DNA of 64,000 nucleotides from assembly GCA_964566255.1 (NCBI GenBank), contig CAZMID010000001.1, positions 10,799-74,798 on the forward strand, read 5' to 3'. Below the pieces are notes generated by a model. It did no database searches, was not told where the DNA came from, and saw nothing but the letters and a program-made list of their open reading frames with translations. Source of the stretch: an uncultured Planctomycetia bacterium. Its GTDB lineage: Bacteria > Omnitrophota > Gorgyraeia > Gorgyraeales > Gorgyraeaceae. A program made the translations under genes and the position numbers. Positions 288 through 19,100 of this stretch are shown here, piece after piece (position 1 is the first letter of the stretch; every line of letters starts with the position of its first letter).

Positions 288-2291
288 TTATTTCAATCTC
301 CTTGCAACTTTTCGGATTTCTACTGCTTCTATAATGTCGCCTTTTTTAATATCCTTAAAACCAAAACTTATACCACATTCAAAACCTTCTTTTGCCTCTT
401 TTATATCATCCTTGAAGTGTTTTAAAGAAGTAGTCTTTCCTTTAAAAATAAGTTCTTTATTTCTAAGGATCTTACATATAGTATTCCTAGGAATCGTACC
501 CTTTAAAACAAAACTTCCTGCTACGATACCTGCCTTTGAAACCTTAAAGACTTGCCTCACTTCAGCCCTACCTAAAAAAGTCTCTTCTAAAATCGGCTCA
601 AGCATACCTTCCATAGCAGCCTTTATATCATTAACTGCCTCATAAATTATATTATAATTCCTTACATCCACGCCTTCCTGTTTGGAAAGTGATTTGGCAT
701 TTGGCATCACATCCACATGAAAGCCCAATATGACTGCATTTGAGGCAGAAGCAAGGATAACATCTGATTCATTGATATTACCCACTTGAGCGTGTATTAC
801 AGAAAGCTTTACCTCATCTGTAGAAAGTTTTTCAAGTGAATCTTTAAGGGCTTCAAGGGACCCTTGCACGTCTGCTTTTAATATAATCTTTAATTCCTTT
901 ACCTCTCCCTCTTTAATTTTATCATAAAGGCCTTCCAAGGTTATCTTCTGGCCTTTGGCCTCTAGTTTTTTCTTTTCTAAATCAAGTCGTTTTGTAGAAA
1001 CAATATCTTTTGCCTTCTTTTCATCGCTTACTACATAGAATTTTTCTCCGACTAAAGGCACACCAGAAAGTCCTAGTATCTCTACTGGTTTTGCAGGAGG
1101 CGCTTGATCTACTCTATGGCCTCTATCATCCAACATTGCTTTAACCTTACCATAATTTACACCGGCTATAATGACATTACCTACTTTAAGGGTACCATTT
1201 GAAACAAGAACCGTCGCTACAGGTCCCTTACCTTTTGAAAGCTCTGCTTCTACTACTATACCTTTAGCAGGTCTATCTGGATTTGCTTTTAATTCCAACA
1301 TTTCTGCTTCTAAAACAAGCATCTCTAAAAGTTTATCTATTCCTTCTCCTGTCTTACCAGAAACTCCTACTGTAATAGCCTTACCACCCCAATCTTCAGC
1401 CAGAAGATCATGCTTAGATAACTGTTTTTTAACTCTATCTATATCAACATTCTGTTTATCAATCTTATTTATAGCTACAACTATAGGTACATTGGCTGCC
1501 CGTGCATGGTCTATTGCTTCTATTGTCTGCGGCATAATACCATCATCAGCAGCTACTACAAGGACTACTACATCTGTAATATTTGCGCCTCTTGCCCTCA
1601 TTGCAGTAAAAGCAGCATGACCTGGTGTGTCTAAAAAAGTTACCTTGCCATGTGAAAGCACTACTTCATATGCGCCTATATGTTGAGTAATACCTCCTGC
1701 CTCCTTATCAACGACTTTAGTCTTTCGTATCATATCCATAAGGGATGTCTTACCATGATCAACATGCCCCATAAATGTTACTATAGGTGCGCGGGGCTTA
1801 AGATCTTTAACATCCTCTTGATCGTGTTCTGAAAGAAGCGATTCTTCCTCCGTAGGAAGTCTTTCTAACATATAACCAAACTCTTCTGAGATATTTTGTG
1901 CAAGTTCATCATTGAGAGTCTGGTTTATAGTAACAAGGATCTTTTTATTTAGAAGCCTTTTTATCAATTCACTCGGTTTAAGCTGTAATTTTATAGATAA
2001 ATCCTTTATTGTGATAGGCAGATTTACCTTTAATATCTTTAGATCCTTCGCTGGTTCTTGTGCCTCTTTAGGCGGTACTGTAACTACTTGAGATTTTTTC
2101 TTTGTATCAGAAGAAGGAACTTTTCTCTTTTCTTTTTTCCCAGAAATCTCCTCTTTTATAAGAAATGCCGTCTTATCATCTATAGAACTCATATGTCCCT
2201 TCACCTTTATCTTCAACTTATGAAGTTTATCTATGAGCTCTTTACTACTAAGACCTATTTCTTTTGCAAGTTTATGTATCCTTACAGTCAT
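288..2291 (-). CDS. infB: Translation initiation factor IF-2.
   Basis: 667 aa. The GTP-binding domain carries HVDHGKTSLMD, DTPGH and NKID motifs, with IF-2 C-terminal beta-barrel domains. It lies in the canonical rimP-nusA-infB order, and its ATG overlaps the nusA stop (ATGA). Confidence 0.95.
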   Translation of the reverse strand: MTVRIHKLAKEIGLSSKELIDKLHKLKIKVKGHMSSIDDKTAFLIKEEISGKKEKRKVPSSDTKKKSQVVTVPPKEAQEPAKDLKILKVNLPITIKDLSIKLQLKPSELIKRLLNKKILVTINQTLNDELAQNISEEFGYMLERLPTEEESLLSEHDQEDVKDLKPRAPIVTFMGHVDHGKTSLMDMIRKTKVVDKEAGGITQHIGAYEVVLSHGKVTFLDTPGHAAFTAMRARGANITDVVVLVVAADDGIMPQTIEAIDHARAANVPIVVAINKIDKQNVDIDRVKKQLSKHDLLAEDWGGKAITVGVSGKTGEGIDKLLEMLVLEAEMLELKANPDRPAKGIVVEAELSKGKGPVATVLVSNGTLKVGNVIIAGVNYGKVKAMLDDRGHRVDQAPPAKPVEILGLSGVPLVGEKFYVVSDEKKAKDIVSTKRLDLEKKKLEAKGQKITLEGLYDKIKEGEVKELKIILKADVQGSLEALKDSLEKLSTDEVKLSVIHAQVGNINESDVILASASNAVILGFHVDVMPNAKSLSKQEGVDVRNYNIIYEAVNDIKAAMEGMLEPILEETFLGRAEVRQVFKVSKAGIVAGSFVLKGTIPRNTICKILRNKELIFKGKTTSLKHFKDDIKEAKEGFECGISFGFKDIKKGDIIEAVEIRKVARRLK

Positions 2292-3517
2292 TTTTTCTTC
2301 TTAACCTCTTTGGGTTTTTTATCCTTAGTTTCTTTTATCTTTTTCTTATCTAGAGGTTTCTTATCTTTAGCTTCATTTAACTTCTTATCCAGCGTCTCTT
2401 TAACTGAAGACAAGACCTTCTCAGCTGTCTTTTTCCCTACACCATCTACCTTTGTCAATGCCTTTAAATCTACTTTTGATAGAGATCCTAGCGTCTTAAA
2501 ACCTGCTTTTGTAAGAGATTTTTTTGTCTTTGGGCCAATGCCTTCTATTTTATCTATAGAGATCTTTTCTAATTTTTCCTTCTCAACCTTACTCCTTATG
2601 TCTATATTCCATCCAGTGAGTTTTGCAGCTAATCTTACATTCTGCCCGCGTTTACCTATTGCAAGTGAGAGCTGATCATCTGCTACTAACACTTCAGCCC
2701 TTTTTGCAGATTCATCTATCTTTATACTTGATATCTCTGCAGGAGATAAGCTCTGAGATATAAATTCCTGGATAATAGCACTCCAGCGTATAATATCTAT
2801 CTTCTCTCCTCCTAATTCCCTGACAATACTTTTAACGCGCTGACCCATCATACCAACGCATGCACCTACGGGATCTACTTTTTCATCCTTGGAGTATACT
2901 GCTATCTTTGAGCGTTCTCCTGCCTCTCTTGAAACAAATTTAATCTCAACTATACCTTCGTATATCTCAGGCACTTCTAGCTCAAACAACCTCTTTACAA
3001 GTCCAGAATCAGTCCTTGAAAGTAATATCTCAGGACCTTTTGCAGTCCTTTTTACTTCCATAATAAGGGCTTTTATTCTATCACCTTGCCTATATTCTTC
3101 ACCGGGTGGAAGAGCCCTCTTTGGTAATATCCCTTCTGCACCACGACCCAGATCAACAATGATTACACCCTTATCAAATCTGTGAACGCTTCCTGATGCA
3201 ATATCATGCACCTTATGTTGATATTCTTCAAACACAACATCTCTTTCTGCTTCACGAATCTTTTGTATAATAACCTGTTTTGCAGTCTGTGCAGAAATCC
3301 TTCCAAAATCCCCTGAAAGTTCTCCGCCTTCAGGTCCAAATACCTTGAATTCGCCTGTTTGTGGATCAAATTCAACCTTTATATCCATTATGTGTTTTCC
3401 AATTTTCTTGCGGGCTGCACTTATAAGGGCAGACTCTATTGCCCTTATAAGGATCTCTTTTTTGATTCCTTTATCCCGTTCAATGCTGTCTAATATCGTC
3501 AATAATTCCTGATTCAT
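2288..3517 (-). CDS. nusA: Transcription termination/antitermination factor NusA, with an unusual lysine-rich C-terminal tail.
   Basis: 409 aa starting MNQELLTILDSIERDKGI, with NusA N-terminal, S1 and KH regions. The C-terminus is KKPLDKKKIKETKDKKPKEVKKKK. Confidence 0.95.
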   Translation of the reverse strand: MNQELLTILDSIERDKGIKKEILIRAIESALISAARKKIGKHIMDIKVEFDPQTGEFKVFGPEGGELSGDFGRISAQTAKQVIIQKIREAERDVVFEEYQHKVHDIASGSVHRFDKGVIIVDLGRGAEGILPKRALPPGEEYRQGDRIKALIMEVKRTAKGPEILLSRTDSGLVKRLFELEVPEIYEGIVEIKFVSREAGERSKIAVYSKDEKVDPVGACVGMMGQRVKSIVRELGGEKIDIIRWSAIIQEFISQSLSPAEISSIKIDESAKRAEVLVADDQLSLAIGKRGQNVRLAAKLTGWNIDIRSKVEKEKLEKISIDKIEGIGPKTKKSLTKAGFKTLGSLSKVDLKALTKVDGVGKKTAEKVLSSVKETLDKKLNEAKDKKPLDKKKIKETKDKKPKEVKKKK

Positions 3518-3529
3518 TTTTATTCTCCT

Positions 3530-4012
3530 TTAGAACTCTGGTTCTTGTCTTGATCTTGTAACTTTCGAAAATGGTACCTCAACTATACCTTTCTTATTTA
3601 TATCTATCTTTATAGAATTATCCAATATCTCTTGGAGTCTTGCAATATATTCTTTTTTATCTAATATAGCTTCGTTCAGTGTAACTCTTATCATTCTTCC
3701 TTTTGCTCTTTCATAGTCCCTTTTTGTCTTAAATACCCTATCCATACCAGGGGAGTCCACTTCTACTATGTAGCTTTCTGGTATTAAGTTGGTCTCTTCT
3801 AAGATTTGACTAATCCTTTGATTTAACATCACGCAATCTGAAAGTTTTATCCCGCCAACTTTGTCTACTAAAAGTCTAAGGACTTGCCTCCTACCTTCTC
3901 TTCTATATATAATCTCTACGAGTTCAATGTCTTCTTCCTGTAAAACCGGCTCTATAATCTCTTTTAATTTATCTATCATGGGCAAATAAAAAAGCGGGTA
4001 CACTTCACCCAC
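3530..4012 (-). CDS. rimP: Ribosome maturation factor RimP.
   Basis: The internal sequence MIDKLKEIIEPVLQEEDIELVEIIYRREGRRQVLRLLVDKVGG...SPGMDRVFK is typical of RimP. The track ORF begins at a GTG directly after a stop codon. The true start may be the internal ATG (MIDKL, ~3979). An AGGGAGG SD lies 13 nt upstream of the GTG. Confidence 0.85.
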   Translation of the reverse strand: MGEVYPLFYLPMIDKLKEIIEPVLQEEDIELVEIIYRREGRRQVLRLLVDKVGGIKLSDCVMLNQRISQILEETNLIPESYIVEVDSPGMDRVFKTKRDYERAKGRMIRVTLNEAILDKKEYIARLQEILDNSIKIDINKKGIVEVPFSKVTRSRQEPEF

Positions 4013-4055
4013 TTAAAATTCAACACCTCCCTTTCGTAAGAGTAGTTATACTATA

Positions 4056-4089
4056 CTATATAGCATATATATCTGTCAAGGGAAAAATC
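4056..4089 (-). promoter_or_regulatory. Putative sigma70 promoter for the rimP-nusA-infB operon (TTGACA-18-TATAGT on the minus strand).
   Basis: Minus-strand TTGACA at 4084-4089 and TATAGT about 18 nt downstream. It sits between the giant-gene terminator and the rimP start, and is followed by an AGGGAGG SD. Confidence 0.35.
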
Positions 4090-4100
4090 CTTCTTGGAAT

Positions 4101-4152
4101 AAAAAAGCCAGTTCTTGCGTATAACAAGAACTGGCTTTAGACACCTTTTTTT
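4101..4152 (-). terminator. Rho-independent terminator downstream of the giant gene. The hairpin is flanked by T-tracts on both strands.
   Basis: Perfect 12-bp inverted repeat AGCCAGTTCTTG (4107-4118), loop cgtataa, then CAAGAACTGGCT (4126-4137). An A6 run precedes it on the plus strand, which gives a U-tract after the hairpin on the minus transcript. A T7 run follows it on the plus strand. Confidence 0.65.
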
Positions 4153-4178
4153 GATTAGGCTGGAAAAATAGCCTCTAA

Positions 4179-7100
4179 TTACACACCAGAGGCAAGTTCA
4201 TCAGCTATTTCCTTATTCAATCTATCACTAACCATATTTAATTCCATTCCGTTTGCAAAATCTTCAAGGAGTCCATCCAAGTTACTCTTGTCCTCGCTGC
4301 TTAAATTAAGCACCTGTATCCTTTTTAATTTAAGCTCATTTATTCCTCTTCCATTTACTACCTTTATCATATCAACATAACCTTCTAGATTAATAACCTT
4401 TTTATATTCATCCGCATTCATAGCTATTATTTCTATTGCATATTCTGAACTAGCATACCTGTCGCTAATCAATCTAATAAAACCTACATGTCCAAGCTCT
4501 ATTACTCTCTCCGCAGAGAAAGTAATAATTTGATTAAGCGGCCTCTTTGATTTTTCTAAATTATCAGGGCCTTTTTTTCCTTCGCGTATCATATCTAAAA
4601 CAGTATCCATTGTTTCCTCTAAGATAGTGTGTGAAGGGCCATACATAGGAATGCGAGAAATATTCATATCTGCGACTAACAATTTGTTTTTTCTTTCTTC
4701 TGTTATAGGTATTGTATCTAGTGCTCTAAAAATAGAAGATGCGATAGATCTTTGTTCGCCCTCATTTTCTTCTTGTTGTAAGTCAAGAAAAAGCTTCGTT
4801 AGTATATAATTATAGGTCAACTTTCCTGATTCTTCGAGGATTGCAAATGCCTCGTTACGGACATCAAGGTCAGGATCTTGTATGTCAGCACGGGCTTGTT
4901 CAATATGTTTTTCTTCAAGCTTAGGTGTTATCTCTACCTTTGATTCAACTCCTTCGAAGATGCGCGGTGTAATCCCATTTATTTTCTTATTAGATAGCTG
5001 GGCAGTAGTAGCGATGCGATGAGATTTATGATCATCCCCAACTGATGCCTCCCTAATAATTGAATATACAGCTTCGGTTTTACTCAATTCACCCAAGGCA
5101 GTTATAATAGCTACCATAATAGATACATTAGGATCTGAATCATCAACTGGTCCTTCAGATAAAGCTAAAATATGTTTATCTTTTGCTTCTTTCCATAATT
5201 CTAGAAGTTGTTTTTCCGCCAGAATCCCACCAAGACAAACTATGGCAGTTGTTCTCAATGGCATATAACGATCTTCATCTTTTGCCAATTTTAGTAAATC
5301 TGAAATTATACCTTCTTTTCTTTCTCCTCGAGACATTATTTTACCAAGCCTAGACTTGATAGGATCTAAAGTAGAATCATCATACTTTCCCAAATGATAT
5401 CCTAAATCAGCTGTAAGTTTTATTATTTCCTGTGTTTTTGTTAAAGATTGTAATACATCTCTAAGATTTTTAATTGATCCATCACGCATACTGCTATGAG
5501 GATCTGCTAATCCATCTTCAAACACATTAGGACCACTTTTAAGCATTACTGCACTATATAACTTTCTATTAAAATCAAATATAGTTTCATTACTTGCTAA
5601 TATATCTCTTGATGTTGAGACACTACCAGATATACTCGATGCTCCATCAGGAGAAATACTCATTCCTGCTGAAGTAATCATTGCTTTATGCCTAACTTGA
5701 TCCTTTGCTAATTCAATCAGATCTCTTGCAGCATCTTTATCTACGATAAAAGTAACCCTATCCTGATCTTGCAAAACTGATGCAGGGACCTCAGGTGTAA
5801 TTTTTCCTGCCACTGAGGCCTTAATAGCATATCTTTTCTTTGGCCCTGTAGCTACCAATAAGATCTTTTTTGCCTTTAAAATAGTAGATATGCCTTGACT
5901 CATTGCATAAGGAGGGACTGCTCTTTTATTTCCATCAAAATACCTGGAATTTGCGTTTATTGTACTTGAAATAAGCTCTACAACCTGTGTCTTTAACTTT
6001 AAAAAGTCTTCAAGGCTTATATCAAGCATTGCTTCAATAAAAGCAATATGACCCTCTTCTCCTATGCCAAGTAGCTGAAGATCTAGACCTTCTTCATTCG
6101 TTGATTTCATAATAAGATCTTCGTAAATCTCAGCTTCTAGTTCAGGAACATTTGCAAGGCCATCCATTAGATGAATATTGCTATCTTTTAATCCAGCATC
6201 TCTAATCATTGATGTCAGTATATGATCATAAAGAAAATGTCTATAAGATTCTTTATTATAATATTGCTCACGATACTCTCTTGAATATCCATATGCACTC
6301 CATACATACTCATCAAGGGCAAATATAACTACATTTGACCAGTCAATTTTTTCTTTTCTTGTAATTTCAATTAATTTTTTATATACACCTTCTTGTGTTC
6401 CACCAGTAGCTAAACCAAGAAAGGTCTTCTTTCCTCTAGCATTTTTTTCTTTGATTAGATTTGCGATTTCTTGTGCAGCACGTAATTCAGCATCATCTTT
6501 AGTCTCTGTTATATCTAACTTTTGTACCTTAGATATATCCCCGAGGGCATCTCCCCATTCAAAAGCCTGTGATGATGACACTAGCTCAACTAGAGATTTC
6601 ATATTAAAGCCAGTGGTTAGACTCATATTACTTGCTAATACAGTTGTTTCCTCTTTAGAGGTATCTGGCATATCGACCTGCTGTAAAATCTCTCTAAAAT
6701 AATACCCTGATCTATAATTCTGAGGTTTTTCTCTTGTTAAATACTCATCTATCTTAAGCTGTAACCCTGTCCTTTTAACAAGCTGATTTAGCGCTCTATC
6801 CATCTCAACAAGAGAATTCTCTTCCAGATGATTTCCTTCTACGGTGCTATTTACATTAGCATGGCCTAATTCGTGAAAGAGGCGTTCTGAAAGGATAGTT
6901 TTTACTGCCTGAGGGTAAGTAGGGTAAGCTAAAAGAAGGTCTTTGATGAAGCCTGCACTAAAAATGATTTCTACATCGCCGGTATCAAAGTTATAGTATC
7001 TTATAGAATTTAAACGTAAGCTCTCTGATACCATGACTTTTATTGGAGGTGCACGATTGTCTGGAGATAGGAACAAATCTTGTAAATATTCTTTCAGATC

Positions 7101-10100
7101 AGCATCACCTTCTACTAAACCCTCTAAATTATCCAGTGCATCATTTAACAAACTGGTTAAATTAAGGGCATTTTCACCTATAGGTGAAAATCTTTGCCCT
7201 TTAGATCTAGATAAATCCAACCCGCATTCCATATCATTTATGAAAGTATCTTTAATGTCAAAATAACTATCCAGCAGCAAATCTCCATGGCGTCTAGCAA
7301 AAGCCTTAAGCTTTCGTTTTTCTATCTGAGATCTATAAGTTGCAAATTCTGCTGCACTTCTTGCTCCTTGATAGGTTGGATCACGGCGGTCTATTCTAAT
7401 CTCTACTGGAACCTCAGGAAAATTTTCACTCAACAAGCTTTGCGCCTTATTAAATAGCATCTCGCCTATCCTGCCTCTAGCTAAAGCCCCAGTTAAAACT
7501 GTATACTTCATGTCAAAATATTTATATAACTCTACTATTGACAGCGCAAGATACTTACCAAGCTGTTCTATGGCATCCTCGGAATCGCTGTTTTTCTCTT
7601 TAAGCCTAGCTTCGATCTTTCGAACAAGTTCAATGCCTTCTAATGATTTGCTTTCTTGCGGGTAAAGCTCTTTTATGCCCCTGAAAGAAGCATAATATCT
7701 ATCCAATCCTTTTATTTTGCGATAGTCATGTTCACGTGCAAATGGTGACATATCAACAACCCTTTTTGCTAATTCAGTTAAATAAATAGAAGGTTTTAAA
7801 TTTTCATCCATAAAACCTCCTATCAAACTGTCGGACGGCGACAACACCAATACCTTTTCTCCTTCCAAATCCGTAAATAATAAGGTAGATCCAAAGGCTG
7901 TTACATTCCCGTCATTTTTTAAACTCACAGGAATTCTCTTATTTGTTAAGCTGTAAAATCTCTCTGATATCTCATCTGCCAAATTTTTTATCATATTGTA
8001 CTGCTGATCCCACCTATCAAACTCCAAAACCTTCATATCAAATAAGATGCTTGCAGATATGGCCATTTTATTATCCCTTACTGCCCCAGGCCAGGCTATG
8101 CCAATAGCATCTATATCTCTTAGAGCTCTTCCAGCATTATTGATAGATTCGTTAATAAGACTATACACTAAATAATCAATAAAATTGCTGTCTTCAAAAT
8201 TTTTCCGATCCAAAGTAAATTGTTCCTTATATAAAGGTTCGCCATTCTCCAAGATAACAATGTATCCGTGAGTCTTGCTAAGGCTTAAGCCTAATGTCAC
8301 ATCCTCATAGCGATTAAACCTGTAATAAACACCTTTCGCAGGACTTTCCTTTTTAGCCTGGATCCCTATCTCTGCTAGCCGCTGAGTATACTTGGTAATC
8401 TCGAAATCTACACCATAATATTGACTTAAATAACTGCTAACGGTCTCTGCCTCTTGCCCTTTGTCGAAATATTCGTCAAATGAGTCCTTTACAGCTTCAA
8501 AAACACTGTCCTCTGCATCAACTGCTACAGTGTCTGAACCCAACGTAACAGCTCCATTATTTATTAAAGTCGCTATATATCTGGATACAATAGCTAACTC
8601 TTCTTTGCTCATAAGCTTTGGGATAGATATATTCAAATCACGCTTCAATCTATCTTGTTCTAAAAACAACAGCGTAGTTTTATTTGTATTACCCGGATCT
8701 AATATCGCAATCATGGAAAAGATATCATCCCATTTGGTTATACTAAAGAGCTTCTCATGCTCTTCCCTCCAAATATCTGAAAAGAGTGTAGAAGCCGGCG
8801 ACTTAATTCGAGATTTATCTCCGTCAATTTCTTCTAGTGAATCCCTTAAGGCTTTATCCTTTTCCACTAAAACATCAAGAAAGAGATTAGCAAGCTGTTT
8901 CTTATCTGTAGTTCTAGATCCATTTTTCTCAAGTCTTTTTAGAAAATGCCTCGCCTCTTTCACATTGTTATCGAATATCCTAAGTAAGACCCCTTCCTTA
9001 ACTACTCCTTTTTTTAATAGAAAATCTGCAAATTTATAAGGGCTATAACCAGCAAACTTTTCATATTGCGCTAAACCTTCTGCCTTTAACCTCTTTTCCT
9101 GCCATGAGACTAGAGGCTCCTGATGTATATTATGTAAAGGCATTCCTCTTCTATTCAAATATGATATGTCCTTTTTTGTTATGTACAAAGCTCCTCTTTG
9201 CCTGCCAGCTTCTGAACGTGAACTATATAGTTCTGGGGGCTGAATAAAGGAACTGAGGTATGCCCGTTCTTCCTTGGTGACAGGCGCCTCATTCATGCCT
9301 CTAAAATTTTCATGCCTAAATAAAAAATATACATATTTATTCATATAAAGCATATCCTCTATATTAATTTCTTCCTTGCCTTTTTTGTCAACATATAAAG
9401 ATCCACCGTCTTGTCCTTCTAAACTAAAATAAAATTCTTTTCCATCACTTACCCTTACCAATACGTGTCTCAGAAGAGAAACTTCTTTTCTGCCAATCAC
9501 TTGTTTTTTTCTATTCAGATACTTAGGTTTGCCATTATCATCATTGCTAGAATGTGTATATTCAACATTTGGTGAGGTAGAATATATGGATTTACCTTCT
9601 TTTGTTACCTTCCATCTGAATAATGCCCCTGTGGCATTATCTATGAATAATGGGTTATGTTTTTTTGAAAAGTAATCTATATTATTATCATACAAAGGAG
9701 AGCCATCTACATATATAAGAGGGCTCTCTGTATTCACATAGCCCTCCTTTCCTTTACCTGTAGTAATAATATCACCTTTTTCATTTATAGGGTCTCCGAA
9801 TTCATTTGCCTCCCTTTTCTTCTGTTTAGTTTGAATCCAAGTGTCTATTTCCTTTGCGCTTGTCCTATTTACTACAATATCACTGAATATCTCACTGAAT
9901 AAAACCACTCTGCCAAGGCGTTTCTTTGCAATACGCTCTATCATCCTTACGCAATCTTCAACGCTATAATTATTCATCTCATCCATATTCACATGATTTA
10001 ATAAAAGTATCTTTTTGGCATCCTTCCTATTAATTAATGCCTCAATCACCCCATCTATAGCCAATTGGCAAACCAGACTTGAAAACAGACTTCCTGCCCC

Positions 10101-13100
10101 AACTATAATAGTACCTATTCTAGGGTCCTTTATAGATTCTATATATTGATTGCTCGGGCGAGGTAATAATTTAAAATTGTCCTTACTCACAGATACATCA
10201 ACATCTGCTATTTTTGAATCATGGCGCAGGACATCAATAAAACGCTGCCCATATACACGTGCGGGCAAAGCATCTTTTCTTTCTCTTACTATGAATTCTT
10301 CTACAGCATCTTTACCAAAAATCTCAACTAACCGCTTTTCCTCTTCCTTAGTTACTTCAGGATAATCTGCCCAAAGAATAGCTTCATTATAAGTAGGATA
10401 AAAAATTTGAGGGATGCCCACCTTTTCTATATCAAGTCCCCATACCATAGCCAATATATCATTGGCTAATGTCGCTTTTTCCTCATCTACTCCATTTACT
10501 CCTTTATCTCCGCATCTCCTATATGCCCTAAGTTTAAAATATACAGCAAGGTTATTGAGATTTCTTATGCTGTTGCCCTTTAAGGTAAAAGTAGTATAAA
10601 GGTTTTTATTCTTGGGTGAAAGGAATTCATTGTCAATTATCCTGGCTATATTTAACTGGTCCGACAAGAACGAAATAACACCTGGTGTATTAAAAAACTG
10701 CTCCTCCAACGGTCTATTTTTATCTTCAGCCAATAACAGTTTAATTTTTTCTAATAAAACTTCCTCTAAAGAATCCGACTCTTTATCTGGTCTGTAGTCA
10801 AGTAAATCTGCAAAGGTTGATTTCCGCATAACATCTGCCAGTACACCCGGACCATCTCCTTCAGTAGATACGCTTCCGAAAATAGGTCTTATAGATTCTA
10901 TAATTTTTCCTGTACTGCCTCCGTCATCAGTGGAAGGAGAGCCCACCTTAATATTTAAACCTAGTAGCTGGCATGCCCTAAGAGTTACCTCTTTCATGCC
11001 TCCTCCGCCTCCAATTACCAGAACCTGTGGAGGAATCTCTTTTCTAATCTCTATGGCTTCTTTTTCTTTATGCGACAGGACCCTATTATCCAAGACTCCC
11101 AAAATTACCCTAGCCACAGTATCTCCAGTAGAAAATGCCTCTTTTAGTATTTCACCGTCAAGGATTTCTTTAACTTGAGCTTTACTCTTATTAGAATACC
11201 TAAGCTTATATATATCAAGGAGTGTTTTATAATTATCACTTGTTTCGATTTCACGAATAGAAATAGGACGTCTTATTTCTGCATACCCTTTAAGCTCAGA
11301 GTGTAAAAAATAATTGTTTAGGTATTTTTCTATAACAAAATTTCTTCGCTGAGGAGTACACTTCAAGAGAGTACCTAAGAATCTAAAGTAACAGCCTGAC
11401 TTAAATGCTGGCCTTTGAGTCTCAAAGTAATCACTGATTACTTCTTGGGTGGTTTTAGTTCCTATAATCTGCTCGCTAACCAATTTATGGAACTCAATGT
11501 CTCTATGAATCAGTTTTCTCTCTTCAGCTCTTTCTTTTTCAACTAAGTCCAGCTCGTTATCATGGCCTAATTCATGAAAATATCTCTCTGCAAGAATTGT
11601 TACAACAGCCTCAAAATGAGATTCATAATCTTTAAGAAGTGTATCTATATAGGATTGGGAAAAGATTAATTCTACTTCTCCAGTACTAGCGTTAAAGTAA
11701 CGAACGGCGGTTAGGGGGAGCATGGATGATACCTTTACTCTTATTGCCGGGTCGTTGTTATCAGGCTTTGATAATACACTTGCAAAATATTCTTTTAACC
11801 CAGGGTCGTCCTCTATTATAGACTCTATAATTCCAAAAGATGCGTTTGAAAGTTCTGCTAATATTGATGCCTGCATATAATCATCCGCTGCTTTGAATCT
11901 CTGAGGTTCAGGCCTAGATAAATCCAATGTTAATTCATATTCTTCTTTGAAGGAACCTTCTAGTGCAGAATAAAAGATTATATTTCCATCACTAGCAAAC
12001 GTCTTTAGCAATCCACTAGCAGTATGTCTCCTCTCAACCTCTTCATAATCCAAAGACTCCTTTAAATCCTTATATGAAAACCCTTCAAACTGCTTAACAT
12101 CCCAGGTTTTCTTAGGGTCGACTTCGATATCTACCTCTACTTCTATGTTTCTTTTTGTTCCTTGGGTATCTACAGGAATATCGGTAATTACTTTGTCGGC
12201 ACGAGCTATTACTTTATCATCTGGCCTATAGAGCGCAACTGCCAAGCTTCCTGAATGTGCATCTATCTCATCTACGACACTGTTCACTATAACAGCGCCT
12301 TTTCTAACGATACCTTTATTTATACGTGTATTACCTAAAATAACAGCGCCTTTTTCTACAACTACGTCTTTACCTAATACAGCTTTATTGTCTATAATTG
12401 AGGAGGGCTGCATAAAAGAATATCCTGTAACCTGCCTCAATATGTCATCACTAAGAAGATTAGTGCATCCTAAGTAATAACGCTGGTTGGTTCCTAAGTC
12501 TGTTATATAGGTCTCTTTTCCTGTATATACGAATCCAAAATCTACTCCGGCAGCAGCTAATTCTCCTGCACGCTTGCCAACATCCTGATTTAAATCCTGA
12601 GCCTTTAAGTTGATATCTGGTCCATTGGGAATGCCTTTTGGATCAACAAATCTCTCAATAGCTTCCTGGTCAAGATGGTATACAGTAAGGTTATTGACAG
12701 GATGGTATACTGTATCAGAATATCTTTTTAAGTAATCTATCTCCTGGGGTGACTTTCTCTTATACATCGCTACAAATCTGCCGTTACTATCTACTTCTAT
12801 CTTGCCAAAATAATCGAATTCTGGATGGCCTAGTTCAACCCCGCCTCCTAATAACTGAACCCCATGTTCACCTAACCCTTTAACAGGCTCGGTTATACTG
12901 AATATCCTGTCTGTAGGCATACTTATTATACCTGTATCATTCTCTCCTAAAAGCTGCATACTCTGACGTATGGCCTGAAAGATATTAGGTTCGCCGTTTA
13001 TTGAACTCATAAACCCTTTATTGCCATAGCCATCTGAAGCAGTAAGAGGATATGTCCTCTTGCCGTCTCCTCCTGTCAAGACTGTAACTACACGCTCTTT

Positions 13101-16100
13101 ATCAAAATTTACCCCGCCCTTGTATAGTTTATCTAAGCCTCGTAAAAACGCCGAGAGGTTTCCATCAATATCATCATCCTGGACATAGATTATGACAGGG
13201 ACTGTTCCTTCTTCTCGTCTTTTCCTCATTGCATCCTGAATAACCGAATCATCAGTATCCTTATTTACTACCAGGATAACACTATTTTGAGGGATAACTT
13301 TCCCCCTTGCGCCTTCCAGAGACTGTTTAATTTGTTCTAGTCCGTCTGATTTTAATAAAAGAATAATGGCATCATGATACACTCTTGAATCAGCCAGCCC
13401 TTTTTCTAGGCGTGCCCTCTGTATGTGTATTCCATACTCTGGTGAATCGCTAAATCTGCGAGCTATCTCTTCTTCAGATAAAGGAGCGCCCTGCGTAGAA
13501 TAAAGTCCGTCTGCCACCTGCAGACCCATATATGCTGCACCTACTGTCTGTCCGAACCTTGCGGCAAATTCACTGTTAAATTCCTTGCTTATACCCTTTC
13601 CTACCTGTCTTACATAATCATCTTCTGAGGCGAGCAGTATATTTACTGTCTCTCTATCTCCTATTTCTTTGGTTAAATATTTCCTTGCTGATTCAGTTAT
13701 TAATCTACCAGCCATACCGCTGGTACACGCCCCGAACAATACAACATGTTCTATTTTAAGGTCTTTTAAGCTAGTTGCTACGGCTACTGCGAGATAAGAG
13801 CCAATGGTCTTAAAGATTTTTTCTGCTTCTTGCCTTTCAGGGTTTGTTTTAGGAAGCTCTAATTTACTCTGTACATACTTTAACTTAGGCCTGTTTCCGA
13901 TTGCCTTTTTAAACTCTTCTAGTTTACTCCCGGTTAAACTGGCCTTGACATGAGAGACAATATCATCTTTATTATCAAGATTAATTTTTTCTTTGGCAGC
14001 GAATCTTCGGGCTACAATCTCTTCAAACCCTTTATCAAAATCAGGCCATACCTTGCGGGCAAGATGTAAAACGCCTCTTTGTGAAGTATACTGCTGAAGA
14101 GCGCCTCTTATCCTCAACCCCTCATGATATCCAGCTTCACTGGACAAATCTATACTACATTTACCCATCTCACCAAGATAGTCATTCAATTGACCTTTAT
14201 TATCTACATATCCTGCGGCCAATCCAGTGCCTAAGCTTAAGGCCAATACATTATTTAGCCCTAATGTACCGGCTAAAGACAATGCTGCTGCATCTCCATC
14301 ATTTAATACTCCTACAGGCACTCCTCCCAATGATTCGCTTATGCGCCTTCCCATAGGAGCCACCTTTGTCCAAAATTCTTCAGAACCTATTCCTCTATAT
14401 GCCCTGGTACCTTCCTGAGTAATCCTTCCATTGACAACAGCCCCTGCTGTACTAAGGCCTATGCCATCAAGTTTAACCTCTGAAATACCAGCAGTATATA
14501 CTCCTTCTATAAAGCTTTCTATTTCCTCAAGAGGGGTATTGGCATTATGCGCCAATTCTTTGAGTTTTCCTTTCAATTCACGTTTTGATCTAGAGCTAGT
14601 TTTTTCAACCTCTATGGCGGCCTTGGCTAAGCGTACCATGGTGACAAAATAACTTAAATGTTCATCTGAATTCTTGAATTTATACGACTCCCAGTTTATT
14701 TCCTTGGCAAAGATACAGCGGCCTTCTATAAATGAAGCTACCTTTACATCGCTTGCGCCTACATCCATTCCTACAATCATACCTCTATGATAATCTTGGG
14801 CAGGGGCTGATTCTTGCTGACTTAACTCGATATCTTCTGAATCAATCTTATCTGCAGACTCTATCTTAAACTTAGTCTCATATATACAGCTAAAATAAGA
14901 AGGGATACGGCTGTAGAGACCTTTTGTAAATAAACGTTCTATTCTCTGGTATAGTTCCTTAGGAGCCTTTATCTTTATGCCTTCAGCGCCAATACGTGAT
15001 AGGGTACTTGCGATCTCGAGGCATAAATAATCAGCCAATTCATCCAATTGGGTATCATCCATTCTTGTAATCGCAGGAATAGCAATTGACCTTCTGTGGT
15101 AGACAGCACCCTTGCTTGTAAGGCCTATTTCCACAGAGTTCTCTGCAGATAATTCCTCATATTGACGTTCCCTTTCAGTGATGGGTGCAAAGGATATACC
15201 TTCATTACTTGCTAATACGTCTGATTCTTTTCTAGTTAAATAATGTTCAACCTTGCCAAAGAAGCGTTCCACATCCTGTTCTGCATCTTTGACAGTTGAA
15301 TCAAATGTAATAAGCATTGTCTTACGGCCTCTATCTACTGTAGCACCTATTGCAGCTATCAGCTGCGCCCTTATTAAATTATCGCTAAATTCTAATGCGT
15401 CGGGTTGCTCCATAACATCGGGCATAAATAATGTATCAACCCACATGTCTTTACCATATTGCTTGTTCTGTTCAGTAGAATGAAGCTTATCAGGTGCTGG
15501 TGAAATTTTAGAAGCTATCTTAAGGCCATTTGTAAATATTTCAGTTTTTGCTGCTTGCAAGATACCTTCCATATCTTCTGTCATTCTTCCATAAAACCCG
15601 AATTCCTTTGCCTCAAAATCAGGTTTTGACTCTAATATTTTTATAATCGCTGCTGCATATACTGCAGGCGCATCATTCATATCTGAACCTAATTTTCTAA
15701 CTCCAGTCTCGAGGTCATCCTGAGTAAGAATACCAGCTGCAATCAACCTGTCATAATATAAATTGAGCTTACCAAATGAAACACTCTTCCAGTCTTCTGG
15801 AATCTCTACTTTCTGATCTGACCCTAAGTCATCCATTATCTTAGTTAGAATCTTTTTATAATCCTGTACTCCTTCTTGATCAACAGCGCAAATATCCCAT
15901 AGATAAGCCACTGTTATTACAGATCTCTGAAAGCCAAGCATTATACCTCCCAGAGAATCTATATCATCAACATCTATTTCAAATACAGGGTATCTATTTT
16001 TCTTCAAATGGCTCCAGAATTCATCATTGGTCTTTTTGTCTCCTACATTTATCCTCAAAAACACCCTGTCACTATCTTCAACATCCTTAAGGGACGCGAT

Positions 16101-19100
16101 AGAAAGATCCTCATCATAAAATAGGCTGATGCCTTTTCCTTCCTTTCCTAAAGATTCTTCAATGAGCTGCTCTGCCCACACAGGCAGATTTTGAAGTTCC
16201 TTTGGCACCATTAGAGTCAACTTATCCTTACCTAATTCAGCTGCCATATAGTAAAGATAGGCACCCAAGATTATAAAGGTATCCTCGTTTATATCTTTAA
16301 TATCATTCATCTTCAGCGCTACCTCAAGTATTTTTTCTACTTTTTCAGGCGCCGAAATCGCCAATACAAGGAGAAATACCAATGTCTGAGGGCTAGTAAA
16401 CCTGCCCCCTATATCTCCTTCTCCATTAAGCTGTATCTCTCGCTGTTCATAACCATGTTCATCCATTGGAGAACCTTTATCAGTTATAACCCACATATGA
16501 TCTTCGGGTTCAATATTAAATTTCTTAAATAAGTCAAATAACTCTTCAAAATATCCTTTCTGATCTACGGTTTCCCTAGTAGTTCCTGATTTACTGATAG
16601 GAATGACAAGGGTTTCTAATAATGCCTTTTCTAAAGAACCAGCATCTTCTGCTATTACATCAAACATATACTTTATTTCTTCAGGGGTTGTTGTTCTAAA
16701 ACTAAATATCTTATAGCCTCCTGGCTCTCCAAATGTTATTTTAACGACCTGAACACTTAAACCAGATCCGCCCATTCCACAGAATATAATATATTTAAAC
16801 TTACTTCTTATCTCTTCAGCATCGTCAAGCACACTCTGTATCTTTTCAGGATTTTTAAGTAGCCATTTCAGATTCTTAACGGTCCAACCTGCGCGGTTCT
16901 TTGGGGGTTCTTCAGGGTTACTTGCATCAAAAATCGCCTTAAGCATTTTCGAAGAAACCAAATCCTCTGCTTCCTCAAAAGATGTTCCATAGACTGCATG
17001 CATCTGGCCGCGTATATCTTCCTGACCTAATTGCAGCAAAATATCATCTAATCTGGTATCCTCCATAATTCCAGTATCTAAGGTATGATTACTTGCTAAC
17101 ACATCTGATTTCTTAGCTTTTGCAATTGTAAAAGTTGCCTCAGCTGCTGGAGATGGTTCATATGATAGATCCATTAATGCCTTTTTCATTGCAGGACCAC
17201 TCAGAGTAGGATCAATTTTCTCTCCAGATGCTACACCTATAAAATCACCTATATCTGTAACTATGGTTTCTTTGGTTTGAGTATGAACTATTATTATGCT
17301 CTCTGGCTGGACCATTACATTAATATCACCTGTAAGCGTCTCTCGGAATTGAGGCGTAAACATCTTCTGCAGTTTTGCTGCTAATTTTTTACTTTCTATA
17401 CCTTTATCCCTAAGAACAGCTACCCCAACAGAAACTACTGCCATGAGAATTCTTTGAGTCTTTAATTCTTTACCGCCTTCTATATTAGGAACAACCTTGT
17501 TATTAAAATCATCCACAAAATCTGGTTTTACAAATGTAGCTATGATAGGGCACCTTAAAGTATCGTTTAAACCCTTAAGAAGTTCTTCTATGGGTTTACG
17601 TTTTCCTGAGAGTAGAAAATGATAATTCTCTTCATCTATATCAGTAGATGAATAAGGGGATACCACTACATAGGAATAGCCTTTTTCTCTTAGAAGCTTT
17701 GTGATACCTTTTGTGTGGAATCCTCCTGCAACAAGACTAGCTACCTTAGCATCGCGCTTTTCTATCTCAGAAACAGAATTTCTTACCATTGCAACGTCAC
17801 GCTGTCTTACAGTCTTATAGAAGTCCTCAAGCCCCTGAAGATGAAAATCTATGAGATTTGGATTATAGTCTATAAAGGCGGAGATATCATGTTTTTTAAG
17901 GGCTGGCTTTAGAAAGGATTTAAAAAAACCTACTTTGTGAGACTCTCTATTAGCTAAGTAATAATCAAGTTCTTCATTTGATACCTTTAAATTAAAAAAC
18001 CCTTCCAAGAATTTGATGTTCCGGAGGGCTTTAATGAATGTCTTTTGTTCGTCAGTCTTTGCAAGTCGCATCTTCACTTCATAGGTAAGATCTTCCATTT
18101 CAGTGAAGAGCTTCGTAGAATCTAAAGAGTTTACCTTTGTGAGATAGCTTAAGAAGTCATTAAGATTAGGGTATTTTGAGATCTTATCCGGGATATGTTT
18201 TAAGGCTAGATCTTTTAAATAGCTATAAAATGAAAAAGGGGATATCTTCTGTTCCCTAAAAAGCTTGGCCTTTACCATCAATGCATCTTTATCTTTGCGC
18301 AATTTTCTGCCTGAAAGCTTTGCCTGCAGATTTAAAAGTAGATTCTGAGATTCCTGCATTACCTTTACTTGATTAATCTTTTGTTCCTGCTCTGTAGCCT
18401 CAGTTAAAAGTGAGATGTTTCTATACTTATCTGTGGAGATGTCGAATTTTCTTACATAGGAAGTAAGATGTTTTAAAAATGCGTCTGTTTCTATTTTTTC
18501 ATTCTCATAATCAACTTCTTTTTGGTCTAAATTTAGAAGCTCTTTTGAATAAATCTTAGATTTAAGCTGATCTAATGCCTTCTGAGCCTGAGAGATAAAG
18601 ACCTGGGATTTGGGGGAGAATTTCATAATGCGGTTAAATTCTATGATGTTCTTAAAATAGATATCTCTATCTTCTATCCCCCAGATAGGTAGGTCTGGGT
18701 ATTTTGTAATAGAGAGGTATTCTTCTCCTGTTAGTTCACCTGAATTTATAAATAGACGTGCTGTCTTTTCCCTTATCTCATAATCTGGAAAGCTTGACAC
18801 GCTGGATGTATCTACTTCTCCATCTGCTCCTTCTGAGCAGACTAAGCCCATATTGTAATCTTTTAAAAGAATCTCTAAGATACTCGCAAGATTAAGTTCT
18901 GCCTCTGGGTTTGTGTGTAAATCCTGTATGTGGACTATAAGGCGTGAATCTTTTGAAGGAGATTCATATACTTCTGTGACCCTTCCTAATTCTGACGGTA
19001 TATGTATCTGAGAGAGGTCTTTTAAATGGGATGAGAGGACGACTTTTGCTTCTTTTCTATGCTTTTCTGCCTTCTTAGTATCTTCTCCTTCAAAGATAGA

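Follow-up and report, generated by a model that had tools for sequence, protein, structure and literature searches.

The longest proteins known come from Omnitrophota and related bacteria, and whether such a giant acts as a single chain or as cut pieces is a stated open question (West-Roberts et al.). Published work on Omnitrophota giants connects them with predation and with the degradation of cell surfaces. In the two studies closest to the present subject, one describing the 'Archaeovorins' (West-Roberts et al. 2023) and the other a 'multi-enzyme metabolic cluster' class (2026 preprint, 10.64898/2026.06.07.730766), C39 and S8 are the sole processing peptidases proposed for these giants, cleavage itself is called open, and HExxH, zincin or metalloprotease modules go unmentioned. 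Here we report on a giant open reading frame (ORF) whose homologues point to the same phylum-level source, found in a stretch of 64,000 nucleotides (contig CAZMID010000001.1, assembly GCA_964566255.1, positions 10,799 to 74,798), which is called the window hereafter. Like the Omnitrophota giants of both studies, its product has many enzyme domains including ROK kinases, HEAT repeats and a signal-peptide-like start, but it is of 5 thousand residues whereas those giants are of at least 10-30 thousand. Embedded in it are two copies of a module centred on the zincin-like motif FHELGH, referred to as HELGH modules A and B.

Regarding known zincins, BlaR1 is a self-cleaving gluzincin (PMC3356374), and the minigluzincins are stand-alone proteins of about 100 residues that use a His a little past HExxH as the third metal ligand (PMC6925264). 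The HELGH domain is undescribed within the limits of the searchable literature, and our analysis relates it to no named family. We propose that it represents a new gluzincin-like metallopeptidase family, plausibly processing exported multi-enzyme giants, a reading to which we would give about an even chance. The domain thus joins C39 and S8 on the short list of candidate processing enzymes as a recurrent, family-specific protease-like domain. Its putative catalytic residues are now defined (H2570, E2571, H2574 and E2588), and a profile recovers it in about 100 copies. A zincin-like family without sequence link to any named family is also of interest for peptidase classification.

Two HELGH modules and their family

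The giant contains exactly two HExxH motifs, both of them FHELGH, around which the first-pass annotation had proposed an internal duplication. Residues 2438-2634 and 4007-4197 do form one colinear alignment in a pairwise BLASTP of the sub-regions, with 77/198 positions identical (39%), 8 gaps and an E value of 1e-39 that refers to the pairwise search space. The motifs listed for the two blocks were all found (LKEY, PDN, TG(E/D)VE(L/I)IFS, IL(A/S)ER(Y/L)FHELGH(D/A)N and (K/R)SG(C/Y)YFR), and both modules share ERxFHELGHxN and SG(C/Y)YF as well as a Glu 14 residues past the second His and an Asp seven residues beyond that Glu. The start of the blocks is put by a hidden Markov model (HMM) about 40 residues further to the N-terminus than in the first-pass annotation. 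The near-identity of 19 nucleotides at the HELGH codons was likewise borne out: TTTCA(T/C)GAATTAGGCCATG agrees at 18 of 19 positions, and the surrounding 71 nt at only 44. However, the duplication itself stands only as paralogy. When modules are ranked by identity over match columns, the partner copy comes 15th and 23rd, with modules of other organisms closer, and the third codon positions of A and B are 43% identical. A recent tandem or internal duplication within the gene is ruled out by these two results, by which A and B, being closer to the modules of other giants than to each other, are to be judged ancient paralogues within a family.

A profile built from modules A and B was scored against 1.84 billion cluster-representative proteins and matched 73 of them at E<=1e-3, 43 at E<=1e-10 and 12 at E<=1e-30, the best E value being 1e-65. 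At least 1,000 residues are found in 52 of the 73 representatives, of which the longest has 7,809, and the short ones are contig-end fragments. We also scanned one genome per GTDB species with a profile from 9 closer sequences and obtained 18 loci with the module, 11 of them labelled Candidatus Omnitrophota and the others uncultured Planctomycetia or Planctomycetales (4), uncultured bacterium (3, all in one metagenome-assembled genome) and, in one case, Actinomycetes. In every scanned locus the module lies within a very long ORF; many of these carriers overrun both ends of the 20-kb locus and so exceed about 6,800 residues, several hold two or three modules, and a stand-alone module was never seen. 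The HELGH family is therefore rare and is nearly confined to giant multi-enzyme ORFs with a signal-peptide-like start, mostly in metagenome-assembled genomes of Omnitrophota.

To describe the conserved positions, residues are counted from aa 2449 of the giant. In an alignment of 41 modules, every one has R119, H126, E140 and D147, and at least 90% have each of H122, E123, L124 and Y184. The same set came out of a second alignment, with 28 modules, and neither of the two shows a conserved His after HExxH. The family signature reads DNRxPPI...VEIIF...ILAERLFHELGHxN-x10-EExxLIxxD...FxSGYYF. Among 103 HMM hits, His-Glu-His is intact in 89 of the approximately 97 copies that cover the motif (about 92%), position 140 is Glu in 93 and position 147 Asp in 90 of 96 aligned copies, and the Tyr of SGYYF (Y184) is Tyr in 76 and Phe in 6 of 89. 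This set is kept despite a divergence that leaves 23-45% identity among copies. In addition, the general-base Glu of HExxH is conserved, which speaks for catalysis since a purely structural metal site needs none.

Eight copies with a degenerate HExxH were found: P0001 (aa 934-1162), P0037, P0042, P0053, P0058, P0059, P0066 and P0072. Their motifs take forms such as FRVLGH, FNQLGR and ELGM, and E140 or D147 is often gone too. In P0053 and P0058, H122 is replaced by S/K, H126 by M and E140 by I, and P0037 carries R119Q, H122N, E123Q, H126R and D147N. Such joint loss is expected of residues that belong to one active site, and these copies are, judging from their residues, probably pseudo-enzymes. 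As E140 is lost together with the His residues, it is the likely third ligand.

The neighbours of the module were compared among the carriers. Enzyme domains in carriers elsewhere include starch synthase, GT1, NUDIX, MbnB/TglH-like and guanylate kinase domains. In their domain content the giant and its fellow carriers agree with the 'multi-enzyme metabolic cluster' class of long Omnitrophota proteins. The order around module A (ROK-like, hexapeptide region, HELGH, CofD-like) is common to L016, L005, P0026 and P0017, and that around module B (ROK-like, then HELGH) recurs in L004, P0011 and P0019. With the L016 ORF the giant shares 40% identity over 2,105 aa, residues 1365-3412 of the giant being colinear. 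Across the family the upstream neighbour of the module varies, and three downstream neighbour types cover 37 of the 84 copies with enough downstream sequence.

Some side observations belong to these carriers. In L016 (contig CAZCLW010000001.1) the cassette of ROK-like, hexapeptide, HELGH and CofD-like parts measures about 2,000 aa (ORF aa 871-2881) and is partly repeated in the same ORF (aa 4292-5350) at 52% identity; its two HELGH modules score identically with the HMM, a sign that a large internal duplication took place recently in L016. Downstream of modules in other giants (P0001-P0072, L004-L013) we noted two further domains that are conserved yet unannotated, one with KF..YS..PG.GKG and L.HTR..R in 16 copies, the other with G.ESF and DG...TEAEN..G..Q..H.H...E in 14 copies. 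The giant of the window has neither of the two.

Predicted fold and relation to named families

AlphaFold2 was run with family alignments for each copy and gave confident models for both, with a predicted local distance difference test score (pLDDT) of 94.8 and a predicted template modelling score (pTM) of 0.91 for module A, and 89.4 and 0.87 for module B. Both models begin with two short strands and two to three helices. Next come a sheet of three strands, a short helix and a helix that ends in HExxH; after a loop of six to eight residues there is a long helix with E140 and D147, and of the three helices that remain the second has the Tyr of SGYYF. HELGH lies at the C-terminal end of a predicted helix (109-124 in copy A, 122-137 in copy B), and E2588 (E140) is on predicted helix 133-156 of copy A. 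The models thus show a sheet and an active-site helix above a helical lower subdomain, as a zincin fold does. Judged by helix periodicity only, R119, H122 and H126 would share one face of the first helix, and E140 and D147 one face of the next; the latter helix is presumably antiparallel, so that E140 would pair with the two His and D147 with R119.

Comparison with solved structures by Foldseek against PDB found no match below E 0.1, and those that came out on top were BlaR1, MATCAP, CapP and lethal factor. BlaR1 is the best structural neighbour of the module, and botulinum light chains, NleC, GtgA and lethal factor are also among those closest to it. Small minigluzincins align over nearly their full length, which means that the module contains a complete minimal zincin core. 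The fold as modelled is zincin-like yet distant from every solved structure.

In sequence searches, modules A and B have no Pfam match at E<=10. When 41 members were scanned singly against Pfam, only sub-threshold matches appeared, namely DUF4344 in 3 (best E 0.0031), SprT-like in 3 and Peptidase_M91 in 2; the recurrent ones are all HExxH peptidase families. The NCBIfam scan of the 41 members gave nothing relevant, the PDB sequence search no match to the module, and the PDB profile search only irrelevant designed-protein matches to the C-terminal helices. The views of the first-pass annotation are thus supported in part: that the block belongs to no named peptidase family holds above threshold in Pfam, NCBIfam and PDB searches, the blocks are a genuine domain whose HExxH is preserved across the family, and of the features it had asked for, the two models give a zincin-like fold and the invariant Glu at +14 on the next predicted helix gives a candidate for the downstream third ligand. 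The block does not belong to any known family of non-catalytic repeats, which would have spoken the other way.

Two particular memberships were tried and rejected. The alpha-ketoglutarate/Fe(II) HExxH hydroxylase family (IPR026337; ChlH, PflC) is matched by 0 of 41 members in the NCBIfam models at E<=5. The minigluzincins do not take in the module, as it has no third His after HExxH, is of about 200-225 residues and is always internal; it is about twice as large as selecase, proabylysin and projannalysin of that group and as Wss1/SprT. At the level of sequence there is no relationship to MEROPS clan MA(E), to BlaR1/MecR1 (M56) or to HtpX/Ste24 (M48). Compared with M56 and M48, whose cores are membrane-embedded, the module is soluble, and it is extended by strands and helices at the N-terminus and by three helices with SGYYF at the C-terminus. 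Nor is there sequence similarity to the botulinum and tetanus light chains (M27), NleC, GtgA or lethal factor, and the M27 light chains, of about 400 residues, have their Glu about 35 residues past the motif whereas that of the module is at +14.

Proposed role, LASN junctions and alternative readings

The HELGH module is probably a metal-dependent peptidase. In the mechanism proposed, the two His (H2570 and H2574; H4137 and H4141) and the downstream Glu (E2588; E4155) would hold a metal, most likely Zn2+, and the Glu of the motif (E2571; E4138) would act as general base and activate the metal-bound water. The Arg-Asp pair (R2567-D2595; R4134-D4162) may brace the two helices by a salt bridge, which is suggested by helix periodicity only, and the Tyr of SGYYF (Y2632; Y4195) may help stabilise the transition state. 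As the likeliest role we envisage limited proteolysis in which the giant precursor would be cut at flexible linkers between its domains, either in cis or by one molecule on another, and the cuts would release or activate enzyme units after export. This would resemble the internal cysteine protease of MARTX, the releasing peptidases of polymorphic toxins (Zhang et al. 2012, PMC3482391) and the self-cleaving gluzincin domain of BlaR1/MecR1. The comparison with MARTX, the cysteine protease domain of TcdA/B and the polymorphic-toxin peptidases concerns only how they work. They have in common with the giant a protease or protease-like domain inside a very long exported chain of independent enzymatic units, but their catalytic class and fold are different, they have one protease domain per protein where the giants have two or three, and processing of the giants is hypothetical.

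Self-cleavage is favoured because the module is always internal, because it is met repeatedly along exported chains whose enzymes are otherwise independent and because BlaR1, its best structural neighbour, is self-cleaving. That the main substrate is the giant itself is nevertheless a tentative proposal, about which we have more doubt than trust. Several results weigh against the reading as a processing peptidase. Comparison of the family members brought out no conserved cleavage motif, and a protease acting in trans would not need several modules per protein. The module has its Glu at +14 and its Asp at +21 (E-x6-D), in contrast to the ExxxD of thermolysin, neprilysin and BlaR1, and in fold comparison ChlH (8s5f), a zincin-derived oxygenase, scores level with the peptidases. 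Lastly, the peptide LASN, which offers concrete candidate sites within this giant, is absent from all homologous giants and loci examined.

LASN occurs four times in the giant, each time after [DT][VI] and a polar linker (KKSDVLASNHTL, KESDVLASNEGI, ETTVLASNMSL and SRDILASNETI), and four copies were reached in 0 of 20,000 shuffles of the protein. The sites divide the chain into the N-terminal domain, the PGI-like unit, a block of 2,855 aa running from ROK to HELGH, the NagB-like unit and the HEAT-like tail, so that a copy of the repeat stands on either side of the PGI-like unit and of the NagB-like unit. Just past junction 2, at aa 1365, homology with the L016 giant sets in. All four sites are encoded by the identical 12-mer TTAGCAAGTAAT, which is found nowhere else in the window, even with one mismatch; it is the only four-copy 12-mer that is not of low complexity, and TATTAGCAAGTAAT is the only three-copy 14-mer. 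Under the codon usage of the giant itself, one LASN would have exactly these codons with p = 0.028, hence p is about 2e-5 for the other three sites to match the first. The two residues before LASN are conserved through synonymous differences (GAT/GAC, GTG/GTA), from which the peptide is also under selection.

The LASN sites could be lineage-specific cleavage sites or linkers, or, more unusually, they may be recombination seams for inserting enzyme cassettes into giant genes, a view based on the exact 12-nt identity of the four sites. The CdiA toxins have VENN-type junctions, and the LASN-flanked units recall these. Analogous in-frame junction k-mers were not found in the loci of other giants beyond those from large internal duplications, and when JGI metagenomes were searched for orthologues close to the NagB-like unit, a single distant match came up. 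It is also conceivable, although we consider it quite unlikely as a joint claim, that the giants are a bacterial 'polyprotein' whose HELGH maturation proteases would cut the precursor into PGI-, kinase-, CofD- and NagB-like enzymes, with the four [DT][VI]LASN sites bounding the domain units as the cut sites in this organism. If this were true, the giant genes of Omnitrophota would resemble operons in polyprotein form, and their own zincin domains would do the processing.

Other explanations of the same data have to be weighed. The module could be an active metallopeptidase with external substrates, such as envelope proteins and envelope peptide cross-links of prey or host, or other secreted proteins, and so an effector domain instead of a maturation protease. 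The catalytic-site and fold evidence fits this equally, the carriers look exported, the link of Omnitrophota giants with predation and cell-surface degradation agrees with it, and secreted toxin and effector proteases (botulinum light chains, NleC, GtgA, lethal factor) are among the structural neighbours; however, a module that is always internal and present two or three times per ORF beside differing enzyme units better fits a punctuating or processing role, and no adhesion or targeting domain is consistently adjacent; we consider the external role unlikely, although it comes next after self-cleavage. Alternatively, a zincin scaffold may serve as a non-catalytic structural or docking domain, perhaps metal-binding, that spaces or organises the enzyme units. 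About 8% of copies are retained in spite of a broken HExxH, and the order ROK - hexapeptide - HELGH - CofD conserved with L016 shows integration with the neighbours. Against this, pseudoenzyme copies are common in real enzyme families, and His-Glu-His, E140, D147, R119 and Y184 are kept in about 92% of divergent copies, which is the pattern of an active site, and we regard the structural role as distinctly improbable.

A non-hydrolase derived from a zincin, modelled on the alpha-ketoglutarate/Fe(II) HExxH enzymes (ChlH, PflC, PosC) that hydroxylate or oxidatively cleave peptides, has very little probability in our estimate: besides the failed NCBIfam comparison with that family there is no such Pfam match, the invariant Glu on the following helix is as in gluzincins, and neither the giant gene nor the window has a precursor like those of ribosomally synthesised and post-translationally modified peptides or a radical S-adenosylmethionine partner. 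That no real domain exists, the match being due to chance or composition or to an artefact of assembly, is refuted by the pairwise E value, by the 73 representatives and by the confidence of both models. In ENA, moreover, two independent metagenome assemblies contain exactly the giant sequence, with a gene call of 5,029 aa, and three contig copies there are 100% identical to the window; the giant is therefore not an assembly chimera. Among these accounts, the gluzincin-like peptidase family with a plausible processing role is the one we prefer.

Architecture and surroundings of the giant ORF

The coordinates are collected in Table 1. From its N-terminus to module A the giant consists of a signal-peptide-like segment, a conserved N-terminal domain, a PGI-like and a ROK-like domain, a hexapeptide-repeat region and the module; a CofD-like domain, an unassigned region, the second ROK-like domain, module B, a NagB/Pgl-like domain and the HEAT-like C-terminus follow.

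Table 1. Positions of the features of the giant ORF in the window, ordered from the N-terminus to the C-terminus of the product
Feature	Window position (nt)	Giant residues (aa)	Strand	Remark
Giant ORF	4179-19283	5,034 in all	minus	ORF list and translation
N-terminal signal-peptide-like segment	19191-19283		minus	MRGRYMNCKTAKKIISVIVLIAFICTNTAYG/AP; putative, from hydropathy
Conserved N-terminal domain, ~500 aa	17454-19040	~82-610	minus	adjoins signal-peptide-like start
LASN junction 1	17088-17099	729-732	minus	between N-terminal domain and PGI-like unit
PGI-like domain		~890-1050		Pfam match
LASN junction 2	15204-15215	1357-1360	minus	between PGI-like unit and ROK...HELGH block
ROK-like domains, two		~1640-1890 and ~3860-3960		Pfam matches
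Hexapeptide-repeat region		~2300		weak Pfam Hexapep match
HELGH module A	11292-11972	2438-2664	minus	HMM-defined limits
R2567, module A	11583-11585	2567	minus	invariant Arg
HExxH of module A	11562-11576	2570-2574	minus	H2570, E2571, H2574
E2588, module A	11520-11522	2588	minus	candidate third metal ligand, +14 from H2574
D2595, module A	11499-11501	2595	minus	7 residues past E2588
Y2632, module A	11388-11390	2632	minus	in SG(C/Y)YF motif
CofD-like domain		~3010-3145		Pfam match
HELGH module B	6639-7265	4007-4215	minus	HMM-defined limits
R4134, module B	6882-6884	4134	minus	
HExxH of module B	6861-6875	4137-4141	minus	H4137, E4138, H4141
E4155, module B	6819-6821	4155	minus	counterpart of E2588
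D4162, module B	6798-6800	4162	minus	counterpart of D2595
Y4195, module B	6699-6701	4195	minus	
LASN junction 3	6627-6638	4216-4219	minus	directly after module B; model pLDDT ~60 there
Glucosamine-6-P isomerase / 6-phosphogluconolactonase-like (NagB-like) domain		4261-4509		Pfam Glucosamine_iso match
LASN junction 4	5589-5600	4562-4565	minus	between NagB-like unit and HEAT-like C-terminus
HEAT-like C-terminus		last 470		weak Pfam HEAT matches

Regarding export, windows of 19 residues with a mean hydropathy above 1.6 are found in the giant only in the N-terminal segment and at aa 3056-3074; the latter is the glycine-rich IVGAGS motif in the CofD-like region and by eye not like a transmembrane segment. 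Other carriers with complete N-termini have the same signal-peptide-like start, and the giant and its fellow carriers would accordingly to appearance bear an N-terminal signal peptide and be exported. The domain at aa ~82-610 has no match in Pfam or PDB sequence searches and is 24-34% identical to the N-termini of the carriers L005, P0038, P0063 and P0028.

As to the surroundings, the giant gene stands inside a conserved housekeeping cluster on the minus strand (window 288-31697) with uppS, cdsA, dxr, rseP, ispG, proS, the giant, rimP, nusA and infB. Throughout the window the listed long gene-like ORFs are all on the minus strand, and the GC skew is negative.

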